From the IMG/VR virus record IMGVR_UViG_2630968712_000015: DNA of 12,610 nt. One strand, given 5' to 3'. The translations under genes were made by a program, and so were the position numbers. Position 1 is the stretch's first letter, and each line of letters starts with the position of its first letter. This stretch comes from a virus. Lineage: Duplodnaviria > Heunggongvirae > Uroviricota > Caudoviricetes. The notes under the pieces were generated by a model that ran no database searches, had not been told where the DNA came from, and worked only from the letters and a program-made list of their open reading frames with translations. This document shows, one piece after another, positions 1 to 12,610 of the stretch.

Positions 1-60
1 ATGAGGTTTGGGTACATTGCTTTGGGTACACCCCCTATTCAAAGTTTGGATATTCGCAAA

Positions 61-1320
61 ATGCCAAAACTAACAGACATGCAGATCCGCGCATGGATTA
101 AGAGCGGAGAGCGATTCGAGGGGCGGGCAGACGGTAACGGTTTATACCTACGTTACCGTGAAGCCGACAAAACCCCCACATGGAGATTCCGCTATAAACT
201 CGCAGGGAAGTCCCGCGCCATGCTAATTGGTTCGTATAGCGAGCTATCACTATCAAAGGCCAGAGAGACAGCCAAAGAGCTATCGGCTCGCGTTGCGCTG
301 GGCTATGACGTTGCAGGAGAGAAGCAGAAGCACAAAACCGAAGCACTGGCGAAGATGGAAGCAGAGAAGAACGCTATGCGCGTTTCAGAGCTTGCCGCTG
401 AATACTTTGAGCGTCAGATCCTCCCGCGCTGGAAGCACCCCGATATACTCCGCCGCCGTATCGACAAAGATATAAACCCCTGCATTGGCAGCATGAAGGT
501 AGAGGACGTGAAACCGCGCCATATCGATGACATGCTGAAAGGTATTGTTGACCGTGGAGCGCCGACCATAGCAACGGACGTGCTGAGATGGACGCGCCGC
601 ATATTCGACTACGGAATCAAACGGCACGCGCTAGAGATTAACCCCTGTTCAGCCTTTGAGGTGGCAGACGCCGGAGGGAAAGAAGCTGCCCGTGACCGCT
701 GGTTAACCCGCGATGAGTTAATCCAGCTATTCAAAGCCATGCGCACGGCTAAGGGATTCAGTCGCCAGAACGAAATCACGTTCAAATTACTGTTAGCGTT
801 ATGCGTCCGCAAAATGGAATTATGCGCCGCACGATGGGAAGAGTTTGATTTAGATGGTGCGGTATGGCATTTGCCGGAAGAACGCAGCAAAAACGGAGAC
901 CCTATTGATATACCTCTACCTTCCCCAGCCGTTGAATGGTTGAGAGAGCTACACACCTTTTCATGTAATAGCGCATGGGTGCTTCCGGCCAGGAAGATGC
1001 AAAACAGAATGATCCCACATATTCAGGAAAGCACTTTACCCGTAGCACTGGCTAAGGTTCGCGCCGAAATGCCGGATGTGCCTAATTTCACGATTCACGA
1101 CTTTCGACGCACCGCACGTACTCATTTAGCAGCGTTGGGTGTTGATCCTGTTGTGGCGGAACGATGCCTCAATCATCGCATTAAGGGCGTAGAGGGGATT
1201 TATAACCGCCATCAGTATTTTGATGAGCGTAAAGCAGCACTGGCACAGTGGGCTGATCTGCTAGTGGCACTGGAAAGCGGAAAAGACTACAACGTAACGC
1301 CTCTCAGAAGGGCGAACTAA
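61..1320 (+). CDS. int: Tyrosine recombinase / site-specific integrase, P4 family. The ORF is open from nt 1 at the window edge; the likely start is ATG 61 (MPKLTDMQIR...).
   Basis: N-terminus LTDxxIR...GLYL...WRFRY typical of P4-type integrases; C-terminal catalytic region with HDFRRTARTHL and GIYNRHQYFDERK (His-x-x-Arg and catalytic Tyr). Length 419 aa from ATG 61. Confidence 0.9.
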   Translation: MPKLTDMQIRAWIKSGERFEGRADGNGLYLRYREADKTPTWRFRYKLAGKSRAMLIGSYSELSLSKARETAKELSARVALGYDVAGEKQKHKTEALAKMEAEKNAMRVSELAAEYFERQILPRWKHPDILRRRIDKDINPCIGSMKVEDVKPRHIDDMLKGIVDRGAPTIATDVLRWTRRIFDYGIKRHALEINPCSAFEVADAGGKEAARDRWLTRDELIQLFKAMRTAKGFSRQNEITFKLLLALCVRKMELCAARWEEFDLDGAVWHLPEERSKNGDPIDIPLPSPAVEWLRELHTFSCNSAWVLPARKMQNRMIPHIQESTLPVALAKVRAEMPDVPNFTIHDFRRTARTHLAALGVDPVVAERCLNHRIKGVEGIYNRHQYFDERKAALAQWADLLVALESGKDYNVTPLRRAN

Positions 1321-1415: not shown

Positions 1416-1715
1416 ATGAAAAAATTACCACCCGCCCCTTTTTTCAGGCTTAACAGAGCAGCCGAATTATTAGAAATAGATATTGATGATCTTTTGATTA
1501 TGGCGGCGGCAGAATCTATATATTTGAGCGCGTACCTTTGCGGCTACGACGGCACATTACATAGCATCGCGAGTCTTTACCGCAATTGCTCTTTATTCCC
1601 AGACGTCAAAGAAGACTGCTTATTACTTGCCGACATAATCACTGAAGTAGAGGACGAAAAAAGCTTTAAGGCAGGCGTTGTAAATCATATAGATTGCCAT
1701 GTGCTTGGGCGGTAA
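1416..1715 (+). pseudogene. 5' fragment of an unknown gene interrupted by IS1. Native codons end at 1710; the TAA at 1713-1715 is supplied by the IS1 terminal repeat.
   Basis: ORF with SD-like AAAGGTG upstream of ATG 1416. The reading frame continues exactly into 2488..3041 once IS1 and one copy of the 9-bp duplication are removed (…NHIDCHVLG|LWHVNASY…). Confidence 0.65.
1702..1710. repeat. IS1 target-site duplication, left copy (TGCTTGGGC)
   Basis: Identical 9-mer TGCTTGGGC immediately flanks both ends of the IS1 (1702-1710 and 2479-2487). Confidence 0.9.
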
Positions 1716-1725
1716 TGACTCCAAC

Positions 1726-2229
1726 TTACTGATAGTGTTTTATGTTCAGATAATGCCCGATGACCTTGTCATGCAGCTCCACCGATTTTGAGAACGACAG
1801 TGACTTCCGTCCCAGCCTTGCCAGATGTTGTCTCAGATTCAGATTATGTCGCTCAATGCGCTGAGTGTAACGCTTGCTGATAACGTGCAGCTTTCCCTTC
1901 AGGCGTGATTCATACAGCGGCCAGCCATCCGTCATCCATACCACGACCTCAAAGGCCGACAGCAGGCTCAGAAGACGCTCCAGTGTGGCCAGAGTGCGTT
2001 CACCGAAGACGTGCGCCACAACCGTCCTCCGTATCCTGTCATACGCGTAAAACAGCCAGCGCTGACGTGATTTAGCACCGACGTAGCCCCACTGTTCGTC
2101 CATTTCAGCGCAGACAATCACATCACTGCCCGGTTGTATGCGCGAGGTTACCGACTGCGGCCTGAGTTTTTTAAGTGACGTAAAACCGTGTTGAGGCCAA
2201 CGCCCATAATGCGTGCACTGGCGCGACAT
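1726..2229 (-). CDS. insB: IS1 transposase InsB (expressed as an InsAB' fusion by -1 frameshift)
   Basis: 167-aa product ...[58 protein letters not shown]... matches IS1 InsB as recalled. Confidence 0.9.
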
Positions 2230-2423
2230 CCGACGCCATTCATGGCCATATCAATGATTTTCTGGTGCGTACCGGGCTGAGAGGCGGTGTAAGTGAACTG
2301 TAGTTGCCATGTTTTACGGCAATGAGAGCAGAGATAGCGCTGATGTCCGGCAGTGCTTTTGCCGTTACGCACCACGCCTTCAGTAGCGGAGCAGGAAGGA
2401 CATCTGATGGAAATGGAAGCCAC
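2148..2423 (-). CDS. insA: IS1 InsA (zinc-finger/HTH transposition inhibitor)
   Basis: 91-aa product [68 protein letters not shown]... is a near-identical IS1 InsA isoform. Confidence 0.9.
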
Positions 2424-2478
2424 GCAAGCACCTTAAAATCACCATCATACACTAAATCAGTAAGTTGGCAGCATTACC

Positions 2479-2487
2479 TGCTTGGGC
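2479..2487. repeat. IS1 target-site duplication, right copy (TGCTTGGGC)
   Basis: Exact 9-bp copy of 1702-1710, directly abutting the IS1 right terminal repeat. Confidence 0.9.
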
Positions 2488-3041
2488 TATGGCATGTTAA
2501 CGCCTCCTATATACTCGACATCGCAGGGCTTGATTCTATTGACACTCCCGCACGCATATTCAGCCCCGCACACAGAAAAAGAGAACTAGACGTAAGTGCG
2601 AATTATTATTTTTTTCTCGATTATACAAAACATGCCTTCCACGAAATATCCGTAGAGGATTTGTACATAACAAGGCCGTGGGTTGAATATATCGGCGAAT
2701 GCATGGACAAAAACCAGCCCATATACAGCCCCGAAACTCGCATAAACTTACAAGCTCTTTATGAGGATGTTAAAAACGTTGAGCACGGAAACAGAGAGCG
2801 CCACAGGCAAAAGCGCGAAATTTGCCTCTTGGCGTTGATTTATGTGAAGCGGCACTACCCAGAAGAGTGTAAAGGGAAGAACGGGAAGGAAACCAACGAA
2901 GCATGGGCGAACGCCACAATAAACCACTGGGCGCTTTTGGGGGGCGGCTATGATGAGCCATCCATAGATTACCTGAAGAAACTCATAGCCGACGCAGACA
3001 GAACACCGGAAGAACGCACCACGGCAGGGAAAAAAAGGTGA
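2488..3041 (+). pseudogene. 3' fragment of the IS1-interrupted gene; the reconstructed intact product is about 282 aa of unknown function
   Basis: Frame continuity with 1416..1710 after removing IS1 and one TSD copy. The upstream part of the six-frame ORF 2304..3041 is read-through across the IS1 end, not native coding sequence. Confidence 0.65.
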
Positions 3042-3153: not shown

Positions 3154-3357
3154 ATGAACATCGACACTATCCCTACAAAAGGCTATATCAGACGCTTCCG
3201 CCTGGCTGAATTGCTGGGCGTTAGTGTATCCACCATCGACCGTAAAGTAAGAAACGGTTCACTACCACGTCCGGTAAAGCTGGGAGAAAAAATAACTGCG
3301 TTTGATGCGGTTGAGATTCACAACTGGCTGGCAGAACGCCGCGGGAAGGTGGCCTGA
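3154..3357 (+). CDS. alpA: AlpA/Vis-family small HTH transcriptional regulator (prophage excisionase-like)
   Basis: 67 aa; ...FRLAELLGVSVSTIDRKVRNGSLPRPVKLGEKITAFDAVEIHNWL... matches the AlpA-family signature; SD AAGAGG upstream of the ATG; sits beside the integrase as in P4-like elements. Confidence 0.85.
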   Translation: MNIDTIPTKGYIRRFRLAELLGVSVSTIDRKVRNGSLPRPVKLGEKITAFDAVEIHNWLAERRGKVA

Positions 3358-3788
3358 TGGAAAAGAAAAACCGCCCATTACAGGCGGCTAATTCAGATAT
3401 TCGCGTATCTGATGTTACGCCCCTTACAAAATCCCTTCAAGCACCAAAGCGCACACCGAAAAAGCATCGTGCCAGAGTCTATATGCTGCGTACTGGTATA
3501 GAGGGATGGACAGAAAATGACATTCTGCGTTATTGCCGCCTTTCGTCTGGAAGGAACTACGCCAGCGAGTTAGAGCGCAGGCTTGATATTCAGCTTGAGC
3601 GTATAGACGAAAAGAACCCCGACGGGATAGGGCCACATTTACGCTATCGCTTTACCGGGCGCGGTGACGTTCTAAAAGTTATTCGGCTTGTGAACCATAA
3701 CGCCGACGCTGGCGGCTATCAGGGACTTTCTCAGCCTGAAATTGCCGACATTCTCAATCTATACCCGGACAATCTCACCGCCGCATAA
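3357..3788 (+). CDS. Hypothetical protein (143 aa), start overlaps the alpA stop (TGATG)
   Basis: ORF with SD-like GGAAGGTGG upstream of the ATG; start overlaps the alpA stop by 1 nt; no recognisable motif. Confidence 0.55.
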   Translation: MEKKNRPLQAANSDIRVSDVTPLTKSLQAPKRTPKKHRARVYMLRTGIEGWTENDILRYCRLSSGRNYASELERRLDIQLERIDEKNPDGIGPHLRYRFTGRGDVLKVIRLVNHNADAGGYQGLSQPEIADILNLYPDNLTAA

Positions 3789-3801
3789 CGGAGCCGAAAA
3801 T

Positions 3802-4419
3802 ATGACTATCGAAAAAAGCCGATTCAGTTCGGGGGCCGCCCCGCAACCCAACGTTAACACGGGAGTAATTAACGGCAACGACTTTGCCGCTATTGTTCCC
3901 GTTATTGCCGGACGCATTGGCGGGCGTGAAGCCAATATTGTGAGCGCTAAGGCGTTGCATAAAGCGCTGGGGGTGGGCCGCGACTTTACTAACTGGATTA
4001 AAGGCCGAATTGACCAGTACGGTTTTATTGCCGGAACCGATTTTATCCGTGTTGAAAATTTGAGCACGCCAAAACGGGCGAGCGCAAAAACTCGCCAGCA
4101 AATAGAGCATGATTACCTGCTATCGCTGGATATGGCTAAAGAAGTGGCAATGGTTGAACGCAACGAGCAGGGCCGCGCTATCCGCCGTTATTTCATCCAG
4201 TGCGAGGAAGAATTACAGCGTAGCGTGCCTGAAATCGCCGCCCGCTATCGTCGCCAGCTAAAAGCCCGTCTCAGTGCCGCAAACAACTTTAAGCCAATGT
4301 GCGATGCGCTGAATATGGCCCGTGCCGAGATGGGCAAAACGACGCAGCAGCGCCACTACAGCAACGAGAGCAACATGATCGCCCGTATCGTGCTGGGTGG
4401 CATGACGGCGAAGCAGTGA
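3802..4419 (+). CDS. AntA/AntB-like phage antirepressor domain protein (205 aa from ATG 3802; the six-frame ORF opens at 3742)
   Basis: Motif ...ALHKALGVGRDFTNWIKGRIDQYGFIAGTDF...DYLLSLDMAKEVAMVERNEQGRAIRRYFIQCEE... resembles the AntA antirepressor domain as recalled; GGAG SD 9 nt upstream of ATG 3802. Confidence 0.7.
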   Translation: MTIEKSRFSSGAAPQPNVNTGVINGNDFAAIVPVIAGRIGGREANIVSAKALHKALGVGRDFTNWIKGRIDQYGFIAGTDFIRVENLSTPKRASAKTRQQIEHDYLLSLDMAKEVAMVERNEQGRAIRRYFIQCEEELQRSVPEIAARYRRQLKARLSAANNFKPMCDALNMARAEMGKTTQQRHYSNESNMIARIVLGGMTAKQ

Positions 4420-6959: not shown

Positions 6960-7301
6960 ATGATTACTAAAAATTTCCGACTGAATGCGCTGGCGAATAA
7001 GTATGCGGCAGCACTGTATAACCACATTACTTCCACCAGCGGCGGGGACTATTTCATGATTGATGCGGACGGCCTCGCCGTCCGTGTGGAAATCGTCAAT
7101 GGAGTAAAAGGCGTTCGCAGCCTGATTGATAGCTACGCACTGGCAGCCATGAAAGTGCGCTACCCGCAGTGGGAAATCGTGGGGATCGAGCTTCTTGATC
7201 GTTGCGTCACTAAGGACGGATTGACTGACATCGGGCGCGAGATATGGCAAAGCATGATTAATGATATGGGCGCGACCGTGGCAGGAGGCAACCATGCGTA
7301 A
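6960..7301 (+). CDS. Hypothetical protein (113 aa) immediately upstream of the primase, translationally coupled to it
   Basis: GAGGGG SD before ATG 6960; stop overlaps the primase start (ATGCGTAA). Confidence 0.55.
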   Translation: MITKNFRLNALANKYAAALYNHITSTSGGDYFMIDADGLAVRVEIVNGVKGVRSLIDSYALAAMKVRYPQWEIVGIELLDRCVTKDGLTDIGREIWQSMINDMGATVAGGNHA

Positions 7302-10053
7302 TATCGACCTTATCCGCGAAGTGACCAGCGCCGCAGCAGGGCGCTGGCCTTATGTGCTGGCTGAATTGTCTATCGACGTGCCTGATTCATCGCGCCGCCA
7401 TTCTCCATGCCCTGCATGTGGTGGAAAAGACCGTTTCAGATTCGACGACAACGGGCGCGGTAGCTTTATCTGCAACCAGTGTGGCGCTGGTGACGGGCTG
7501 GATTTAATCAAGCGGGTAAACAACTGCGACACCACGGAGGCGGCACAGCTTGCCGCTGACGTGCTGGGTATTGATTACCGGGCAGCGCAAACCGACCCGG
7601 CGGCAGCGAGCCATAGAAGAGAGCAACTGGAAGCTGACCGCCAGCAGCGTGAGCAGGAGCGCCAGAAACAGGCAGCAGAGGACGCAGAGCAGCGAAGGGC
7701 TACGTTTGCCCATCTGTATGCCGGAATGCGCCAGAGTGCCACACAGGGCGAATCTGATTACCTGCAATCAAAAGGGCTGACCGGGTTTAACTATCCGGTT
7801 ATGCCGGATGGTTCGTTATTGCTGGAGCTGGTGGACGAATCCGGCGCAGTGGCAGCAGCGCAAACCATTACACCGCAGGGAGAGAAGCGACTCCTGACAG
7901 GTTCAGCAAAGCGCGGGGCATATCACGCCGTAAACGCGCCAGAATCGCCGCAGAGCGTTTTAATTGCCGAGGGGCTGGCGACGGCCCTTTCAGTTCACCT
8001 GATGCGCCCGGACGCGCTGGCAGTGGCAGCAATTGACGCGGGCAACCTGCTACCCGTTGCCGAAGTGATGCGCCGGATATATCCCGCCACGCAGATTATC
8101 ATTGCCGCAGATAACGACCACCAGCAGGACGACCAGGCGAACACGGGCAAAGATGCCGCAGAGAAAGCCGCCTTATCCGTGGCTGGCTGGGTGGCGCTGC
8201 CGCCGACAGACTACAAAGCCGACTGGGACGACTACCGCCAGCAAAACGGGCTGGAAGTCGCTACGGCTGCGTTTAACGATTCGATGTACCAGATTCAAGG
8301 GGAAGCCGTGAAACCGCGATTGCAAGCCATTGAGGGCGGTAAAACTGACCATCCAGAGAAAGATCCACTAAAACCCCACATTGAGAGCCGCAAAGATAGC
8401 GTTTTCTGGGTAACGCCGAAGGTGGACAAGGAAAGCGGGGAGATCGTCAACGCTGAAAGCTGGTTATGTTCCCCGTTGGAGGTTATCGGCACGGGACGCG
8501 ACGACAAAGATCAGTATCTTATTATCTCATGGCTGGCATTCGGTGCAGGCATACCGACAACAGCGGCTATCCCGCTGGCTGATATTGGCGAGCGTGAAGG
8601 CTGGCGCACCCTGAAAGCTGGTGGGGTTAACGTCACGACCAAAAGCAGTTTACGGGCGATCCTTGCCGACTGGCTACAGCGGAGCGGCTCGCGTGAATTG
8701 TGGCGCGTTGCTCATGCTACAGGCTGGCAGTGCGGGGCATACATCATGCCGGACGGGGAAATCATCGGCACACCTGAGCGGCCTGTTTTGTTCAGCGGGC
8801 GCAGTTCAGCCGCTGCCGGGTATACCGTAGCAGGAACGCCGGAAAGCTGGCGCAACAGTGTCGCGCGGCTGGCATACGGCAACTACGCGATGATGACAGG
8901 CATTGCCGCAGCACTGGCAGCGCCATTAATCGGGGTGGCAGAGCGTGACGGATTCGGGATTCATTTTTATGAGCAATCGAGCGCCGGGAAAACAACCACG
9001 CAGAACGTGGCTAGCAGTCTATACGGGAACCCTGATGCCTTGCGCCTGACGTGGTACGGGACGGCGCTGGGGATGATAAACGAGGCCGCCGCCCACAATG
9101 ACGGACTGATGCCGCTGGATGAAGTCGGACAGGGCGCAGACCCGATAAGCGTTTCTCAGTCTGCCTATGCCCTGTTTAACGGCGTAGGGAAATTGCAGGG
9201 CGCGAAAGAAGGCGGAAATCGGGATCTAAAACGCTGGCGTACCGTGGCAATCAGCACCGGGGAAATGGATTTAGAAACGTTCATTGCCTCCGCAGGACGC
9301 AAGACAAAAGCGGGGCAACTGGTGCGCCTGCTGAATATCCCGTTAAGTAAGGCGGTGCGCTTTCATGAGCACCAGACAGGGAAAGACCATGCAGACGCAT
9401 TAAAATCCGCGTGGCAGAGCAATCACGGCGCTGCCGGGCGGGAGTGGATCAGATGGCTTGCAGGCCACCAGCAGCAGGCCATTGATACCGTTCGTGACTG
9501 TGAAGCCCGCTGGCGCAGTCTTATTCCTGCCGACTATGGGGAACAGGTTCACCGTGTAGGGGCAAGGTTCGCCATTCTGGAGGCTGCTTTACTGCTGGGT
9601 GGCGTGGTTACTGGCTGGGATGATCAAACGTGCCGTGATGCGATACAGCACAGCTACAATGCGTGGTTGCGTGAGTTCGGCACGGGGAACAAAGAGCACC
9701 AGCAGATTATTGAGCAGACGGAGGCGTTTTTGAATGCCTATGGGCTGAGTCGATTCGCGCCGCTGGGTTATGACCCGCGCGATTTACCCATCCGTGATTT
9801 AGCCGGGTACAGGAAGAAGGGGAACCACGACGGCGACCCGATAATTTTCTACACCTTCCCGGCAGCGTTTGAGCAGGAGATTGCAAAGGGCTTCAATACC
9901 AAACAGTTTGCCGAAGTTCTAAAGAATGCAGGAATGCTTACACCACCAACGAGCGGGCGAGGCTATCAGGGGCGAGTAAGGGAGGATGGGCGACAGATTC
10001 GCGTCTATGTACTCAATTTCATGGCAGAGGAAAGCAGCCAGCCAGAAGAATAA
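7294..10053 (+). CDS. Primase-helicase (P4 alpha-like replication protein): N-terminal primase zinc ribbon, Toprim domain, C-terminal P-loop NTPase/helicase domain
   Basis: Perfect AGGAGG SD before ATG 7294; CPACGGKDRFRFDDNGRGSFICNQCG zinc ribbon; Toprim-like AEGLATALS...IIIAADNDH; Walker A SSAGKTT and Walker B LMPLDEVG; 919 aa. Confidence 0.9.
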   Translation: MRNIDLIREVTSAAAGRWPYVLAELSIDVPDSSRRHSPCPACGGKDRFRFDDNGRGSFICNQCGAGDGLDLIKRVNNCDTTEAAQLAADVLGIDYRAAQTDPAAASHRREQLEADRQQREQERQKQAAEDAEQRRATFAHLYAGMRQSATQGESDYLQSKGLTGFNYPVMPDGSLLLELVDESGAVAAAQTITPQGEKRLLTGSAKRGAYHAVNAPESPQSVLIAEGLATALSVHLMRPDALAVAAIDAGNLLPVAEVMRRIYPATQIIIAADNDHQQDDQANTGKDAAEKAALSVAGWVALPPTDYKADWDDYRQQNGLEVATAAFNDSMYQIQGEAVKPRLQAIEGGKTDHPEKDPLKPHIESRKDSVFWVTPKVDKESGEIVNAESWLCSPLEVIGTGRDDKDQYLIISWLAFGAGIPTTAAIPLADIGEREGWRTLKAGGVNVTTKSSLRAILADWLQRSGSRELWRVAHATGWQCGAYIMPDGEIIGTPERPVLFSGRSSAAAGYTVAGTPESWRNSVARLAYGNYAMMTGIAAALAAPLIGVAERDGFGIHFYEQSSAGKTTTQNVASSLYGNPDALRLTWYGTALGMINEAAAHNDGLMPLDEVGQGADPISVSQSAYALFNGVGKLQGAKEGGNRDLKRWRTVAISTGEMDLETFIASAGRKTKAGQLVRLLNIPLSKAVRFHEHQTGKDHADALKSAWQSNHGAAGREWIRWLAGHQQQAIDTVRDCEARWRSLIPADYGEQVHRVGARFAILEAALLLGGVVTGWDDQTCRDAIQHSYNAWLREFGTGNKEHQQIIEQTEAFLNAYGLSRFAPLGYDPRDLPIRDLAGYRKKGNHDGDPIIFYTFPAAFEQEIAKGFNTKQFAEVLKNAGMLTPPTSGRGYQGRVREDGRQIRVYVLNFMAEESSQPEE

Positions 10054-10080
10054 TTATTTCTTCACATGCGTAGTTTTAGT

Positions 10081-10254
10081 GTTGTCTCGGTTGTCTTTGT
10101 TGTCTCAATTTGTAATTGAGATTGATTTATAAGGATTTTATTTTAATTTCTGAGACAACACCGAGACAACATTTAGCCATTTTGAGACAACAGGGCGAAA
10201 GTGTGTTTTTAGTCTGGCAGGCAGTGAGACAACATTTATGCCGGGTGAGACAAC
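10081..10254. repeat. Iteron array: three inverted GTTGTCTC/T copies at 9-bp spacing, an AT-rich spacer, then five direct TGAGACAACA copies phased at 11/21/42/21 bp; putative replication origin or cis replication region
   Basis: GTTGTCTC at 10081, GTTGTCTT at 10090, GTTGTCTC at 10099; AT-rich 10107-10150; GAGACAAC at 10152, 10163, 10184, 10226, 10247; located directly 3' of the primase-helicase gene. Confidence 0.6.
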
Positions 10255-10343
10255 ACTATTTTTGCTTACTATGAAAAAAAATCGGCAGGTGTCCCACATT
10301 AAGAAATCGTCATTAGCAAAACTAATAATCCAGTGAGGGGAAA

Positions 10344-10778
10344 ATGACAGCACAAATTTCAGCATACGGGCGGCTGGTGGCAGATCCCCAGACCCGCACC
10401 ACAACGAACGGTAACAACATGGCTATGGCGCGGCTGGCGGTGTCTCTCCCCTGTAATGCGGCAGAGGCGGGAGAGTCAACCTTCTGGCTGGGCGTTATTG
10501 CTTTTGGGAAGCAGGCCGATGCGCTGGCAAAGCACCAGAAAGGCGACCTTGTGAGCGTGGCAGGCAATATGCAACTCAACCAGTGGACAGGGCAGGACGG
10601 CGGTACACAGCAGGGGTATCAGGTAGTAGCCGACAGTGTGATCAGCGCCAGAACGGTACGCCCCGGCGGGAAGGCAGGACAGCGGGGACAGGCAACGGAC
10701 GCGCTGAGACGTGCGCAGCAGCCATCCCGTGATGAATACGACCAAAGCCCACCATTCGACGATGAAACGCCATTCTGA
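10344..10778 (+). CDS. ssb: Single-stranded DNA-binding protein (SSB-like, 144 aa) with acidic C-terminal tail
   Basis: GAGGGG SD before the ATG; OB-fold-like pattern (GRLVADPQ...NG...A.ARLAV...FW..VIAFGKQA...KGD.V.V.G.....W); C-terminal ...PPFDDETPF resembles the SSB acidic tip (DDDIPF in E. coli SSB). Confidence 0.7.
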   Translation: MTAQISAYGRLVADPQTRTTTNGNNMAMARLAVSLPCNAAEAGESTFWLGVIAFGKQADALAKHQKGDLVSVAGNMQLNQWTGQDGGTQQGYQVVADSVISARTVRPGGKAGQRGQATDALRRAQQPSRDEYDQSPPFDDETPF

Positions 10779-10788
10779 GAGGGAAGAT

Positions 10789-11340
10789 ATGAGTACGCAA
10801 CCCATCATTATTGAGTTCGGCAGCTATCGCTGGCCCAGACATCTTGCAATACATGAAGCAGGTCATGCGATAGCCGCATGGTTTTTCGGCATACAGGAGG
10901 TAGAAATTGCGTTATCGGGTAATAACCGAGTGGCAAAAACCTACCTTAGCGGCGATGTTGATGAATGTGGAGCTGTCGCGGTATGGCACGCCAACTATCC
11001 ACGGAATGTGGCTGAGGTTAAGTCTTACACCCTCTCGAATGATGACACCAGGTTACGTCTGATAGACCAGGTATGCCGGGCTATGGTTATCTCTCTGGCT
11101 GGTATCGTCGCGCAATCACGCTATACGGGGGATGATATTAACGCACTGATGGAAACGTCCGGGAAAGCAGACATGAAAAATGTTCGTGATTTATCAGAGG
11201 TATACCGGGTGGCTGGTGGGGAGGATGCTGATATACAGAGAATATCCCTTTCCCGTGCTGAGGCGCTGATTGCCCTGAAATGGTGGGATGTAGACTGGCC
11301 CCCTGAATCTCCAGACAACCAGTATCACTTAAATAAGTGA
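10789..11340 (+). CDS. Stand-alone FtsH-like (peptidase M41-type) zinc metalloprotease-domain protein; the native 3' end is replaced by IS2 from nt 11291 (last 16 codons and the stop are IS2-encoded)
   Basis: True start ATG 10789 after the ssb stop (the six-frame ORF start at 10711 lies inside ssb). [13 protein letters not shown] matches the FtsH HEAGH zinc-binding motif, with downstream regions paralleling the FtsH protease domain; no AAA+ domain upstream. Confidence 0.55.
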
Positions 11341-11381
11341 TAGTCTTAATACTAGTTTTTAGACTAGTCATTGGAGTACAG

Positions 11382-11747
11382 ATGATTGATGTCTTAGGGC
11401 CGGAGAAACGCAGACGGCGTACCACACAGGAAAAGATCGCAATTGTTCAGCAGAGCTTTGAACCGGGGATGACGGTCTCCCTCGTTGCCCGGCAACATGG
11501 TGTAGCAGCCAGCCAGTTATTTCTCTGGCGTAAGCAATACCAGGAAGGAAGTCTTACTGCTGTGGCCGCCGGAGAACAGGTTGTTCCTGCCTCTGAACTT
11601 GCTGCCGCCATGAAGCAGATTAAAGAACTCCAGCGCCTGCTCGGCAAGAAAACGATGGAAAATGAACTCCTCAAAGAAGCCGTTGAATATGGACGGGCAA
11701 AAAAGTGGATAGCGCACGCGCCCTTATTGCCCGGGGATGGGGAGTAA
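11382..11747 (+). CDS. insC: IS2 InsC (OrfA, HTH transposase component), 121 aa from ATG 11382
   Basis: [56 protein letters not shown]... matches IS2 OrfA; GGAG SD upstream. The six-frame track start at 11337 is a GTG inside the IS2 terminal repeat. Confidence 0.9.
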
Positions 11748-12610
11748 GCTTAGTCAGCCGTTGTCTCCGGGTGTCGCGTGCGCAGTTGCACGTCATTCTC
11801 AGACGAACCGATGACTGGATGGATGGCCGCCGCAGTCGTCACACTGATGATACGGATGTGCTTCTCCGTATACACCATGTTATCGGAGAGCTGCCCACGT
11901 ATGGTTATCGTCGGGTATGGGCGCTGCTTCGCAGACAGGCAGAACTTGATGGTATGCCTGCGATCAATGCCAAACGTGTTTACCGGATCATGCGCCAGAA
12001 TGCCCTGTTGCTTGAGCGAAAACCTGCTGTACCACCATCGAAACGGGCACATACAGGCAGAGTGGCCGTGAAAGAAAGCAATCAGCGATGATGCTCTGAC
12101 GGGTTCGAGTTCTGCTGTGATAACGGAGAGAGACTGCGTGTCACGTTCGCGCTGGACTGCTGTGATCGTGAGGCACTGCACTGGGCGGTGACTACCGGCG
12201 GCTTCAACAGTGAAACAGTACAGGACGTCATGCTGGGAGCGGTGGAACGCCGCTTCGGCAACGATCTTCCGTCGTCTCCAGTGGAGTGGCTGACGGATAA
12301 TGGTTCATGCTACCGGGCTAATGAAACACGCCAGTTCGCCCGGATGTTGGGACTTGAACCGAAGAACACGGCGGTGCGGAGTCCGGAGAGTAACGGAATA
12401 GCAGAGAGCTTCGTGAAAACGATAAAGCGTGACTACATCAGTATCATGCCCAAACCAGACGGGTTAACGGCAGCAAAGAACCTTGCAGAGGCGTTCGAGC
12501 ATTATAACGAATGGCATCCGCATAGTGCGCTGGGTTATCGCTCGCCACGGGAATATCTGCGGCAGCGGGCTTGTAATGGGTTAAGTGATAACAGATGTCT
12601 GGAAATATAG
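11705..12610 (+). pseudogene. insD: IS2 InsD (OrfB, DDE transposase catalytic domain) interrupted by an in-frame TGA at 12089-12091 where a Trp codon is expected
   Basis: The two six-frame ORFs 11705..12091 and 12188..12610 are in the same frame with no other stop between them; [25 protein letters not shown] versus ESNQRWCSDGFEF in IS2 InsD as recalled. Confidence 0.75.

Follow-up and report, generated by a model that had tools for sequence, protein, structure and literature searches.

The short direct and inverted repeats, or iterons, at positions 10081-10254 of the stretch of DNA analyzed here (the window, 12,610 nt, 52% G+C and 48% A+T) very probably form the replication origin (ori) of a Gram-negative phage-inducible chromosomal island (PICI). 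The array follows directly on the gene of a primase-helicase, pri-rep, whose product is the presumed initiator that would recognize the iterons. Its reading as an origin is supported by an anatomy like that of published island origins, by its conservation beside related genes and by the covariation of the iteron sequence with the C-terminus of the initiator. An earlier note on this DNA had already proposed iterons served by the adjacent primase-helicase, together with an AT-rich unwinding element, a proposal that the enrichment and the conservation described below support well at the level of sequence comparison. The region is organized as follows:

10054..10079, + strand, spacer from the stop codon to the first iteron, 26 bp, with the conserved motif TCACATGCGTAG
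10080..10107, - strand, left iteron set, three head-to-tail copies with a 9-bp period (as read on the + strand, 10081 GTTGTCTC, 10090 GTTGTCTT, 10099 GTTGTCTC)
10107..10150, no strand, AT-rich core of 44 bp, presumed DNA-unwinding element
10151..10192, + strand, right proximal iterons, three direct copies (10152, 10163, 10184; spacings 11 and 21 bp), opposed to the left set
10225..10255, + strand, distal direct iterons 4 and 5 (10226, 10247)

The array contains seven exact octamers and one with a single mismatch, which makes eight sites in 174 bp. On the + strand, GAGACAAC starts at 10152, 10163, 10184, 10226 and 10247, and its complement GTTGTCTC is found at 10081 and 10099, with the one-mismatch version GTTGTCTT at 10090; these are the positions given in the earlier note for both orientations. 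The true conserved unit is the 10-mer TGAGACAACA, not the octamer alone. Relative to the first one, the direct copies are offset by 0, 11, 32, 74 and 95 bp, each at most 0.5 bp off a multiple of 10.5, so that the helical phasing previously suggested from the spacings of 11, 21, 42 and 21 bp holds for the five direct copies. The left triplet is a contiguous tandem with a 9-bp period and without helical phase. Between both sets, the AT-rich stretch 10107-10150 was confirmed to contain 84% A+T, as compared to 48% for the full window.

The whole window holds nine exact copies of GAGACAAC, for which 200 dinucleotide-preserving shuffles gave an expectation of 0.32 (standard deviation 0.52, maximum 2). 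The two copies outside the array lie within insertion sequences (IS): the one at 1827, in IS1, is part of a perfect 10-mer TGAGACAACA (1826-1835, - strand), and the one in IS2 is an 8-mer (11760-11767, - strand). Two stray copies for 0.32 expected are mildly unusual, although their location in two unrelated insertion sequences suggests that they are probably coincidental. A perfect 8-bp palindrome with a 3-nt loop (TCTCAATT TGT AATTGAGA, 10103-10121), which overlaps the last left iteron, is probably incidental as well, since it is not kept in the related loci L001 and L005.

This architecture is the one known from mobile islands of bacteria. In Gram-negative PICIs, the origin directly follows the initiator gene on its 3' side (Fillol-Salom et al. 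2018, ISME J, PMC6092414), and a pri-ori fragment of the island EcCICFT073 maintains a temperature-sensitive plasmid, for which both pri and ori are needed (PMC6092414). In the Staphylococcus aureus pathogenicity islands (SaPIs), Rep is a self-loading hexameric helicase whose C-terminal winged helix recognizes 6-12 iterons located directly downstream of rep, half of them on each side of an AT-rich centre and with the two sides opposed (PMC9371898; PMC7581432). The array of the window fits the SaPI/PICI description exactly, as it starts 27 bp past the stop codon of pri-rep (10053) and has three copies on the - strand (10081-10106), a core of 84% A+T and five copies on the + strand (10152-10254). 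Its cognate initiator would be a Rep-type self-loading helicase with a predicted C-terminal winged-helix domain.

The composition of Pri-Rep points in the same direction. Over residues 7-331 it shows 35% identity with the primase region of the alpha protein of phage P4 (BLASTP, 338 aligned columns, E=7e-43), a similarity that ends at residue 331. For residues 413-816 the best structural counterpart is SaPIbov1 Rep (8TCH, E=6e-8), with a weaker match to the SCCmec protein Cch (5DGK). The helicase module is DUF927, in agreement with a published description of DUF927 helicases as being of the SaPIbov1 Rep type (PMC7581432), whereas both P4 alpha and the Pri-Rep of EcCICFT073 carry D5_N/DUF5906/Pox_D5. 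For the C-terminal domain, a profile comparison with the PDB gave nothing significant, and relatives emerged by fold comparison alone. A homology search with the C-terminal 169 residues, which returned mostly gene fragments, served as the alignment for an AlphaFold2 model of residues 751-919 (42 homologues; mean predicted local distance difference test, pLDDT, of 83.5). In this model the protein would end in a strand-strand-helix-helix arrangement followed by a terminal beta-hairpin, and the predicted fold resembles that of SaPIbov1 Rep, with a low identity of 12-18% in structural alignments.

Arrays of this kind are found beside most of the related primase genes. When one genome per species was scanned, 78 Enterobacterales loci with relatives of the primase (32-93% identity) were retrieved. 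Together with the window and three loci of E. coli, these gave 75 loci whose downstream sequence was long enough to be examined for the commonest 8-mer in the first 300 bp past the stop codon, with 2008 windows from the same loci as controls. At least four copies of this 8-mer were present in 67 of the 75 loci and in 21 of the 2008 controls, and at least five copies in 59 loci and 10 controls. The two checks suggested in the earlier note, local enrichment of the octamer and conservation of the array next to homologous primase genes, have hence been carried out, and both agree with an origin.

The octamer varies by lineage, with about ten variants that include GAGACAAC, GAACCAAC, GAACCGAC, TAACCCGT, TAACCCAC, TACCCGAC, TGACACAC, a TTATCCC-type and TGTTACCA/GTTACACC. 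The geometry of the array, in contrast, varies little in 56 loci of seven octamer types: the left set keeps a 9-bp period in 99 of 106 spacings, 53 bp separate the last left iteron from the first right one in 47 loci, and the first and second right-hand spacings are 11 bp (55 loci) and 21 bp (50 loci). Where a third and a fourth right-hand spacing are present, they measure 42-43 bp and then 21 bp in most loci with five direct copies, and the first iteron lies 23-30 bp from the stop codon in 53 of the 56 loci. A core of three plus three iterons (3+3, the short form) is the sole form in 21 loci, and 18 loci contain a long form of 12 iterons, made of three inverted copies, the AT core, five direct copies, one inverted copy and three tandem direct copies. 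Because so many loci have the 3+3 core alone, the distal iterons are probably accessory and the core is probably sufficient for origin function; as a speculation, the distal sites would serve copy control or raise the local concentration of the initiator. In a conservation profile built from 54 distinct sequences, the iteron columns are invariant, the spacers drift and conservation drops to zero past the third right-hand iteron, a pattern of invariant iterons amid diverging spacers that suggests selection on the iterons.

Two other blocks of the region are conserved. The block TTGATTTATAAGGATTTTATT of the AT-rich core (10122-10142; TTGATTTATAAGG...) is kept across lineages with different iteron types, indicating that more than a high A+T content matters in the core; this block could serve to start priming, to bind Rep as a single strand or to bind a host factor. 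The spacer motif TCACATGCGTAG (10060-10073) is also kept across lineages and is palindromic (CACATGTG) in several relatives, in some of which a T or A run follows the clean palindrome, as in the locus L022 (CCTCACATGTGAGGATTTT). It may be the terminator of pri-rep or an extra protein site.

Among complete E. coli genomes, 303 of 5426 have a recognizable relative of this intergenic region, 33 of them of the GAGACAAC type. Some individual loci depart from the common layout, such as an Erwinia metagenome-assembled genome with seven tandem left copies instead of three (L068, 3959-4130) and Klebsiella michiganensis, in which the fourth direct iteron is fused to the right-hand triplet (L015, 5763-5960). 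A locus labelled as Chryseobacterium sp. (L010, CACSKA010000004.1) encodes a primase 85% identical to that of the window, followed by a typical GAACCAAC origin, which suggests a mislabelled assembly or contamination with enterobacterial DNA. Two E. coli relatives of the GAACCAAC type, L002 (10048-13619) and L003 (9761-14105), contain P22-like DNA-ejection (gp16-family) and DUF2824 genes past the origin. Both resemble the published island EcCIMP1, which is mobilized by a P22-like helper (PMC11773190).

As far as the compared sequences indicate, the type of iteron tracks the C-terminus of the initiator and not its overall relatedness. The protein of L009 is 87% identical overall to that of the window, yet its iterons are of the GAACCAAC type, and the protein of L018, only 76% identical overall, is accompanied by GAGACAAC iterons, with an identity that rises to 86-90% over its last 80 residues. 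When 7 full-length proteins of the GAGACAAC type were compared with 36 of the GAACCAAC type (columns renumbered to the 919-aa protein), the only fully discriminating columns were G893, R894, V895, E897 and A911. Over 43 proteins of four iteron types, the most type-associated columns were 895, 894, 893, 897, 825, 903 and 911, and column 895 splits the four types with zero variation within each of them: V with GAGACAAC, S with GAACCAAC, T with GAACCGAC and A with TAACCCGT. In the predicted model, residues 893-897 (G893 R894 V895 R896 E897; nt 9970-9984) form the first strand of the terminal beta-hairpin, the putative wing of the fold. Iteron and C-terminal sequence thus match as a correlation, with one partial exception (L051), which supports, and does not prove, that this hairpin reads the iteron sequence. 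A more far-reaching idea, which we advance tentatively and regard as somewhat doubtful, is that the lineage with fused Toprim and DUF927 modules uses a rigid scaffold (a triplet of sites repeating every 9 bp, then a gap of 53 bp, and sites at +11 and +21 on one face) on which the octamer has been exchanged about ten times through changes of 4-5 residues in the hairpin. If true, these would be natural orthogonal pairs of initiator and origin, with a near one-residue code at position 895 (V/S/T/A with GAGACAAC/GAACCAAC/GAACCGAC/TAACCCGT). As a further speculation, the conserved asymmetry between a 9-bp spiral on the left and phased sites on the right could encode how two Rep hexamers are oriented and loaded.

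The array of the window is an incomplete version of the long form, with 8 iterons as compared to 12 in sister genomes, from which it differs by the absence of 84 bp and four iterons (one inverted, the others direct). The break is located at 10254/10255, between the fifth direct iteron and the last one of the right-hand triplet, both of them GAGACAACAC; iteron 5 of the window is therefore the junction at which both copies are fused. The 84-bp segment, comprising one inverted iteron and two of the three tandem direct iterons, is present in all four GAGACAAC-type loci of other genera that were aligned (E. coli, Shimwellia, Enterobacter and an Enterobacterales isolate). Three complete genomes, L088-L090, show an identical Pri-Rep, identical flanks and the full 12-iteron origin (L088, 12760-13135), which indicates that the window has either lost the segment in a recent deletion, through recombination between iterons, or reflects a collapse of repeats in the draft assembly AMKE01000112.1.

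The element that carries the array is a Gram-negative PICI interrupted by IS1 and IS2. Its gene content and order match those of Gram-negative PICIs (PMC6092414; PMC10111431), with int, alpA, antA, small open reading frames (ORFs), pri-rep, the array and ssb in this order and with all of these genes on the + strand:

AMKE01000112.1:143097-155706, equivalent to L087:2708-15317, the window
1..1320, + strand, int, tyrosine integrase (Pfam Arm-DNA-bind_3, Phage_int_M, Phage_integrase)
3154..3357, + strand, alpA, signature activator of Gram-negative PICIs (Pfam Phage_AlpA, 2.2e-8)
3742..4419, + strand, antA, AntA antirepressor
7294..10053, + strand, pri-rep, 919 aa (Zn_Ribbon_Prim 1.3e-15, Toprim_3 5e-14, DUF927 4.5e-48; same gene call in L087)
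9751..10050, + strand, C-terminal domain of Pri-Rep, about residues 820-919, winged-helix-like fold in the predicted model
10344..10778, + strand, ssb, single-stranded-DNA-binding protein (SSB), next gene past the array (Pfam SSB, 5.6e-17)

The insertion site is yicC-dinD, with yicC immediately upstream of the island in L087, as in the reference PICI EcCIRM13514 and in the E. coli relative L001. The order pri-rep, ori, ssb is also found in L001, EcCICFT073 and EcCIRM13514, and SSB has been grouped with Primase and a mapped ori in the replication category of PICI genes (PMC10111431), so the SSB of the island probably belongs to its replication module. Past ssb, an ORF at 10789-11340 (listed as 10711-11340) has no Pfam match and contains a HEAGHA motif (HExxH, zinc-metalloprotease-like); in E. 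coli relatives a PerC-family regulator occupies its place. IS1 (insB ORF at 1726-2229, - strand; region 1416-3041) splits a gene between int and alpA, and IS2 (orfA at 11337-11747, then orfB, up to 12610) cuts the island to the right of ssb, disrupting its right part; island-like genes resume beyond IS2 in L087. The island is a decaying one, ridden with insertion sequences. Such decay is typical of IS-rich Escherichia/Shigella-like chromosomes.

With the anatomy, conservation and covariation described above as a basis, the steps of replication can be proposed by homology with the SaPI Rep protein. The process would start with a helper phage that induces AlpA, whose role has been described (PMC6092414), leading to the synthesis of Pri-Rep. 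Hexamers of this protein would attach to the TGAGACAACA iterons that flank the core through their winged-helix-like C-terminal domains, with a base specificity probably derived largely from the terminal beta-hairpin G893 R894 V895 R896 E897. The 44-bp AT-rich core would then melt, and the DUF927 helicase rings would self-load, probably one hexamer per side. Finally, the fused Zn-ribbon/Toprim domain would lay the first primers, whereas the neighbouring SSB would coat the exposed single strands.

Several observations weigh against an origin of this kind or against its specificity model. The EcCICFT073 ori for which activity was tested belongs to another Pri-Rep allele (D5_N/DUF5906/Pox_D5) and has TCTACC-type iterons; the iterons of the window measure 8-10 bp, as compared to 5-6 bp in SaPIs; and three homologous loci (L054, L055 and L061) gave no array in the downstream 8-mer scan. 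A Xenorhabdus locus (L051) combines GAGACAAC iterons with the hairpin YQGKTPRL, which has only the first Gly in common, and shared ancestry inflates the counts behind the correlation between hairpin and iteron. Moreover, this copy of the island has suffered the IS1 and IS2 insertions and has an origin short by 84 bp, which together imply that it may no longer replicate.

The latter point leads to the best surviving alternative, namely that the array is a former origin and now an inactive relic in a decaying copy, which we consider possible though rather improbable. IS1 interrupts the stretch from int to alpA (1726-2229), the right end is cut off by IS2 from ~11337 on, the origin is 84 bp and four iterons shorter than in the sister genomes, and several ORFs of the Bro zone look shortened when compared to L001. 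Against a relic, int, alpA, pri-rep (the full 919 aa) and ssb are intact, and the retained 3+5 iterons include the complete 3+3 core that stands as the sole form in 21 related loci. An identical Pri-Rep protein is found in 161 blocks of a public assembly collection, and the 84-bp gap itself may be a repeat collapse of the draft assembly.

The repeats could also be operator or promoter sites of the ssb operon, or autoregulatory sites of pri-rep, instead of an origin, but this seems very improbable. The AT-rich core has two weak sigma-70-like matches (9/12), one per strand, the iterons of plasmids often double as autoregulatory sites, and the distal iterons of the long form are upstream of ssb. 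However, the two promoter matches barely exceed the 0.7 expected from shuffled sequences, and the promoter and terminator matches are all weak and near the shuffle expectation. The array is not accompanied by a separate regulator gene, and its octamer co-varies with the C-terminus of Pri-Rep. Its offset from the stop codon of pri-rep also stays the same regardless of the next gene, which is ssb in the window and in L001 but an unrelated one in L002 and L003, and this register makes a purely regulatory role unlikely. A secondary regulatory role of the distal iterons is compatible with the array being an origin.

A P4-type origin, with an ori and a crr whose iterons are bound by an alpha-like C-terminal domain and with a second distant cluster, is slightly less credible still. 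The likeness is real in the primase, since Pri-Rep and alpha share the Zn_Ribbon_Prim and Toprim_3 domains (35% identity, E=7e-43 over the N-terminal 330 residues), and distant homologues in P4 exist for three proteins of PICIs, namely AlpA, Int and Pri-Rep (PMC6092414). The position is alike too, given that crr, with octamers in both orientations, sits directly 3' of the alpha gene. The statement in the earlier note that P4 ori and crr contain octameric iterons was right, as the P4 record (NC_001609) annotates TGTTCACC 'type 1' repeats in both elements, with crr just 3' of alpha and 11 exact copies in total. Beyond the primase domain and the array position, the comparison with P4 breaks down. 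The octamer differs, just as the earlier note had pointed out in suggesting a distinct specificity: TGTTCACC has 0 copies on either strand of the window and GAGACAAC has 0 in P4. The helicase is DUF927 instead of the D5_N/DUF5906/Pox_D5 of alpha, and when its C-terminal domain was compared by hhalign with the last 154 residues of alpha, no similarity emerged (probability 0.15%). The bipartite requirement of P4, with two separated cis elements and a crr that is a 120-bp duplication, has no counterpart either, as the 12.6 kb contain neither a second iteron cluster nor a 120-bp duplication. The gene content (alpA, antA, ash, ssb) is that of PICIs and not that of P4, whose sid, delta and psu were not seen in the window in a non-exhaustive search. 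Membership in the P4 ori/crr class was therefore rejected on octamer, helicase and DNA-binding modules, and layout.

Finally, a packaging (cos/pac) site, a partition centromere or a chance repeat can practically be dismissed: short-repeat arrays do occur at pac sites and parS-like centromeres, but Pfam scan and gene calls revealed no terS, parA or parB in the window, the array goes together with the primase gene and the C-terminal domain encoded there and not with packaging genes, which vary among loci, 0 of 200 shuffles reached the observed count, and no Rfam family was above threshold. The Rfam search returned only sub-threshold noise of eukaryotic snoRNAs and miRNAs, and an RNA element was rejected.

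The reading as a PICI origin is thus the one to be placed among the known systems. With the origins described by Fillol-Salom et al. (2018; PMC6092414) it has in common the location 3' of pri-rep and the two iteron sets round an AT-rich region, and the islands share int, alpA, unidirectional genes and an ssb after ori. The text and supplements of that work, as far as they were available, do not give the iteron sequences, which are shown in a figure only. EcCICFT073 differs in its 584-aa Pri-Rep with D5_N/DUF5906/Pox_D5, its TCTACC-type hexamer iterons and a less regular layout, whereas the window has a 919-aa Toprim-DUF927 fusion, iterons of 8-10 bp and a strictly conserved spacing. In EcCICFT073 (L085, 27242-29284), TCTACC/GGTAGA repeats round an AT-rich stretch are followed by the same ssb-perC genes, which indicates that unrelated initiator/origin cassettes occupy the same slot in PICIs; EcCIRM13514, at the same attachment (att) site, also has a D5-type primase. 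The locus L003 (ABU 83972) was considered as EcCICFT073 and rejected, since the real island is at 1,377,930-1,388,654 of CFT073 and has a different type of Pri-Rep.

SaPI origins and their Rep proteins (Ubeda et al. 2007, 2012, as cited in PMC9371898 and PMC7581432; 8TCH) differ in the host, which is Gram-negative here, in the primase, which in the window is a fused, P4-alpha/DnaG-like Toprim module, and in their penta- or hexamer iterons as compared to octamers or decamers. SCCmec Cch/Cch2, with its putative origin, belongs to a recombinase-mobilized cassette with a separate primase, for which no more than three 5-nt iterons have been reported. Iteron plasmids (pPS10, RK2, F and P1, with Rep_3/RepA) have in common the phased direct repeats, the AT-rich unwinding element and the winged-helix binding; they differ in that the initiator of the window is itself helicase and primase, and its opposed iteron sets round an AT core do not resemble the origins of plasmids. 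No Rep_3-type gene was found among the island proteins scanned with Pfam, and the DnaA box pattern TTWTNCACA gave 0 matches in the window. Inspection by eye of the AT-rich core for an IHF site found no convincing match to WATCAANNNNTTR.

Since the PICI/SaPI type, to which both the element and its origin belong, was already presented by Fillol-Salom et al. 2018 (PMC6092414), the finding is less new than the earlier note supposed. The class of origin is known and, for another allele, tested, and the existing picture of PICI and SaPI replication is unchanged by these results; what they add is a scaffold that stays fixed while its octamers are exchanged, a hairpin that is a candidate for specificity, and the absence of 84 bp from this copy. 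The comparison of loci also shows that such iteron arrays grow and shrink through recombination between their repeats. In annotations, rep_origin would be a suitable label for the 290-bp 'intergenic' region, and the element can be called a PICI and not a P4-like satellite or a cryptic prophage. The result is a precise origin map, including the sites that look essential, for a PICI lineage that about 5-6% of the complete E. coli genomes carry, together with the testable hypothesis that initiator specificity is read by the hairpin residues 893-897. Orthogonal pairs of initiator and origin could explain the coexistence of several PICIs per cell without cross-replication, and may offer possible orthogonal replicons.

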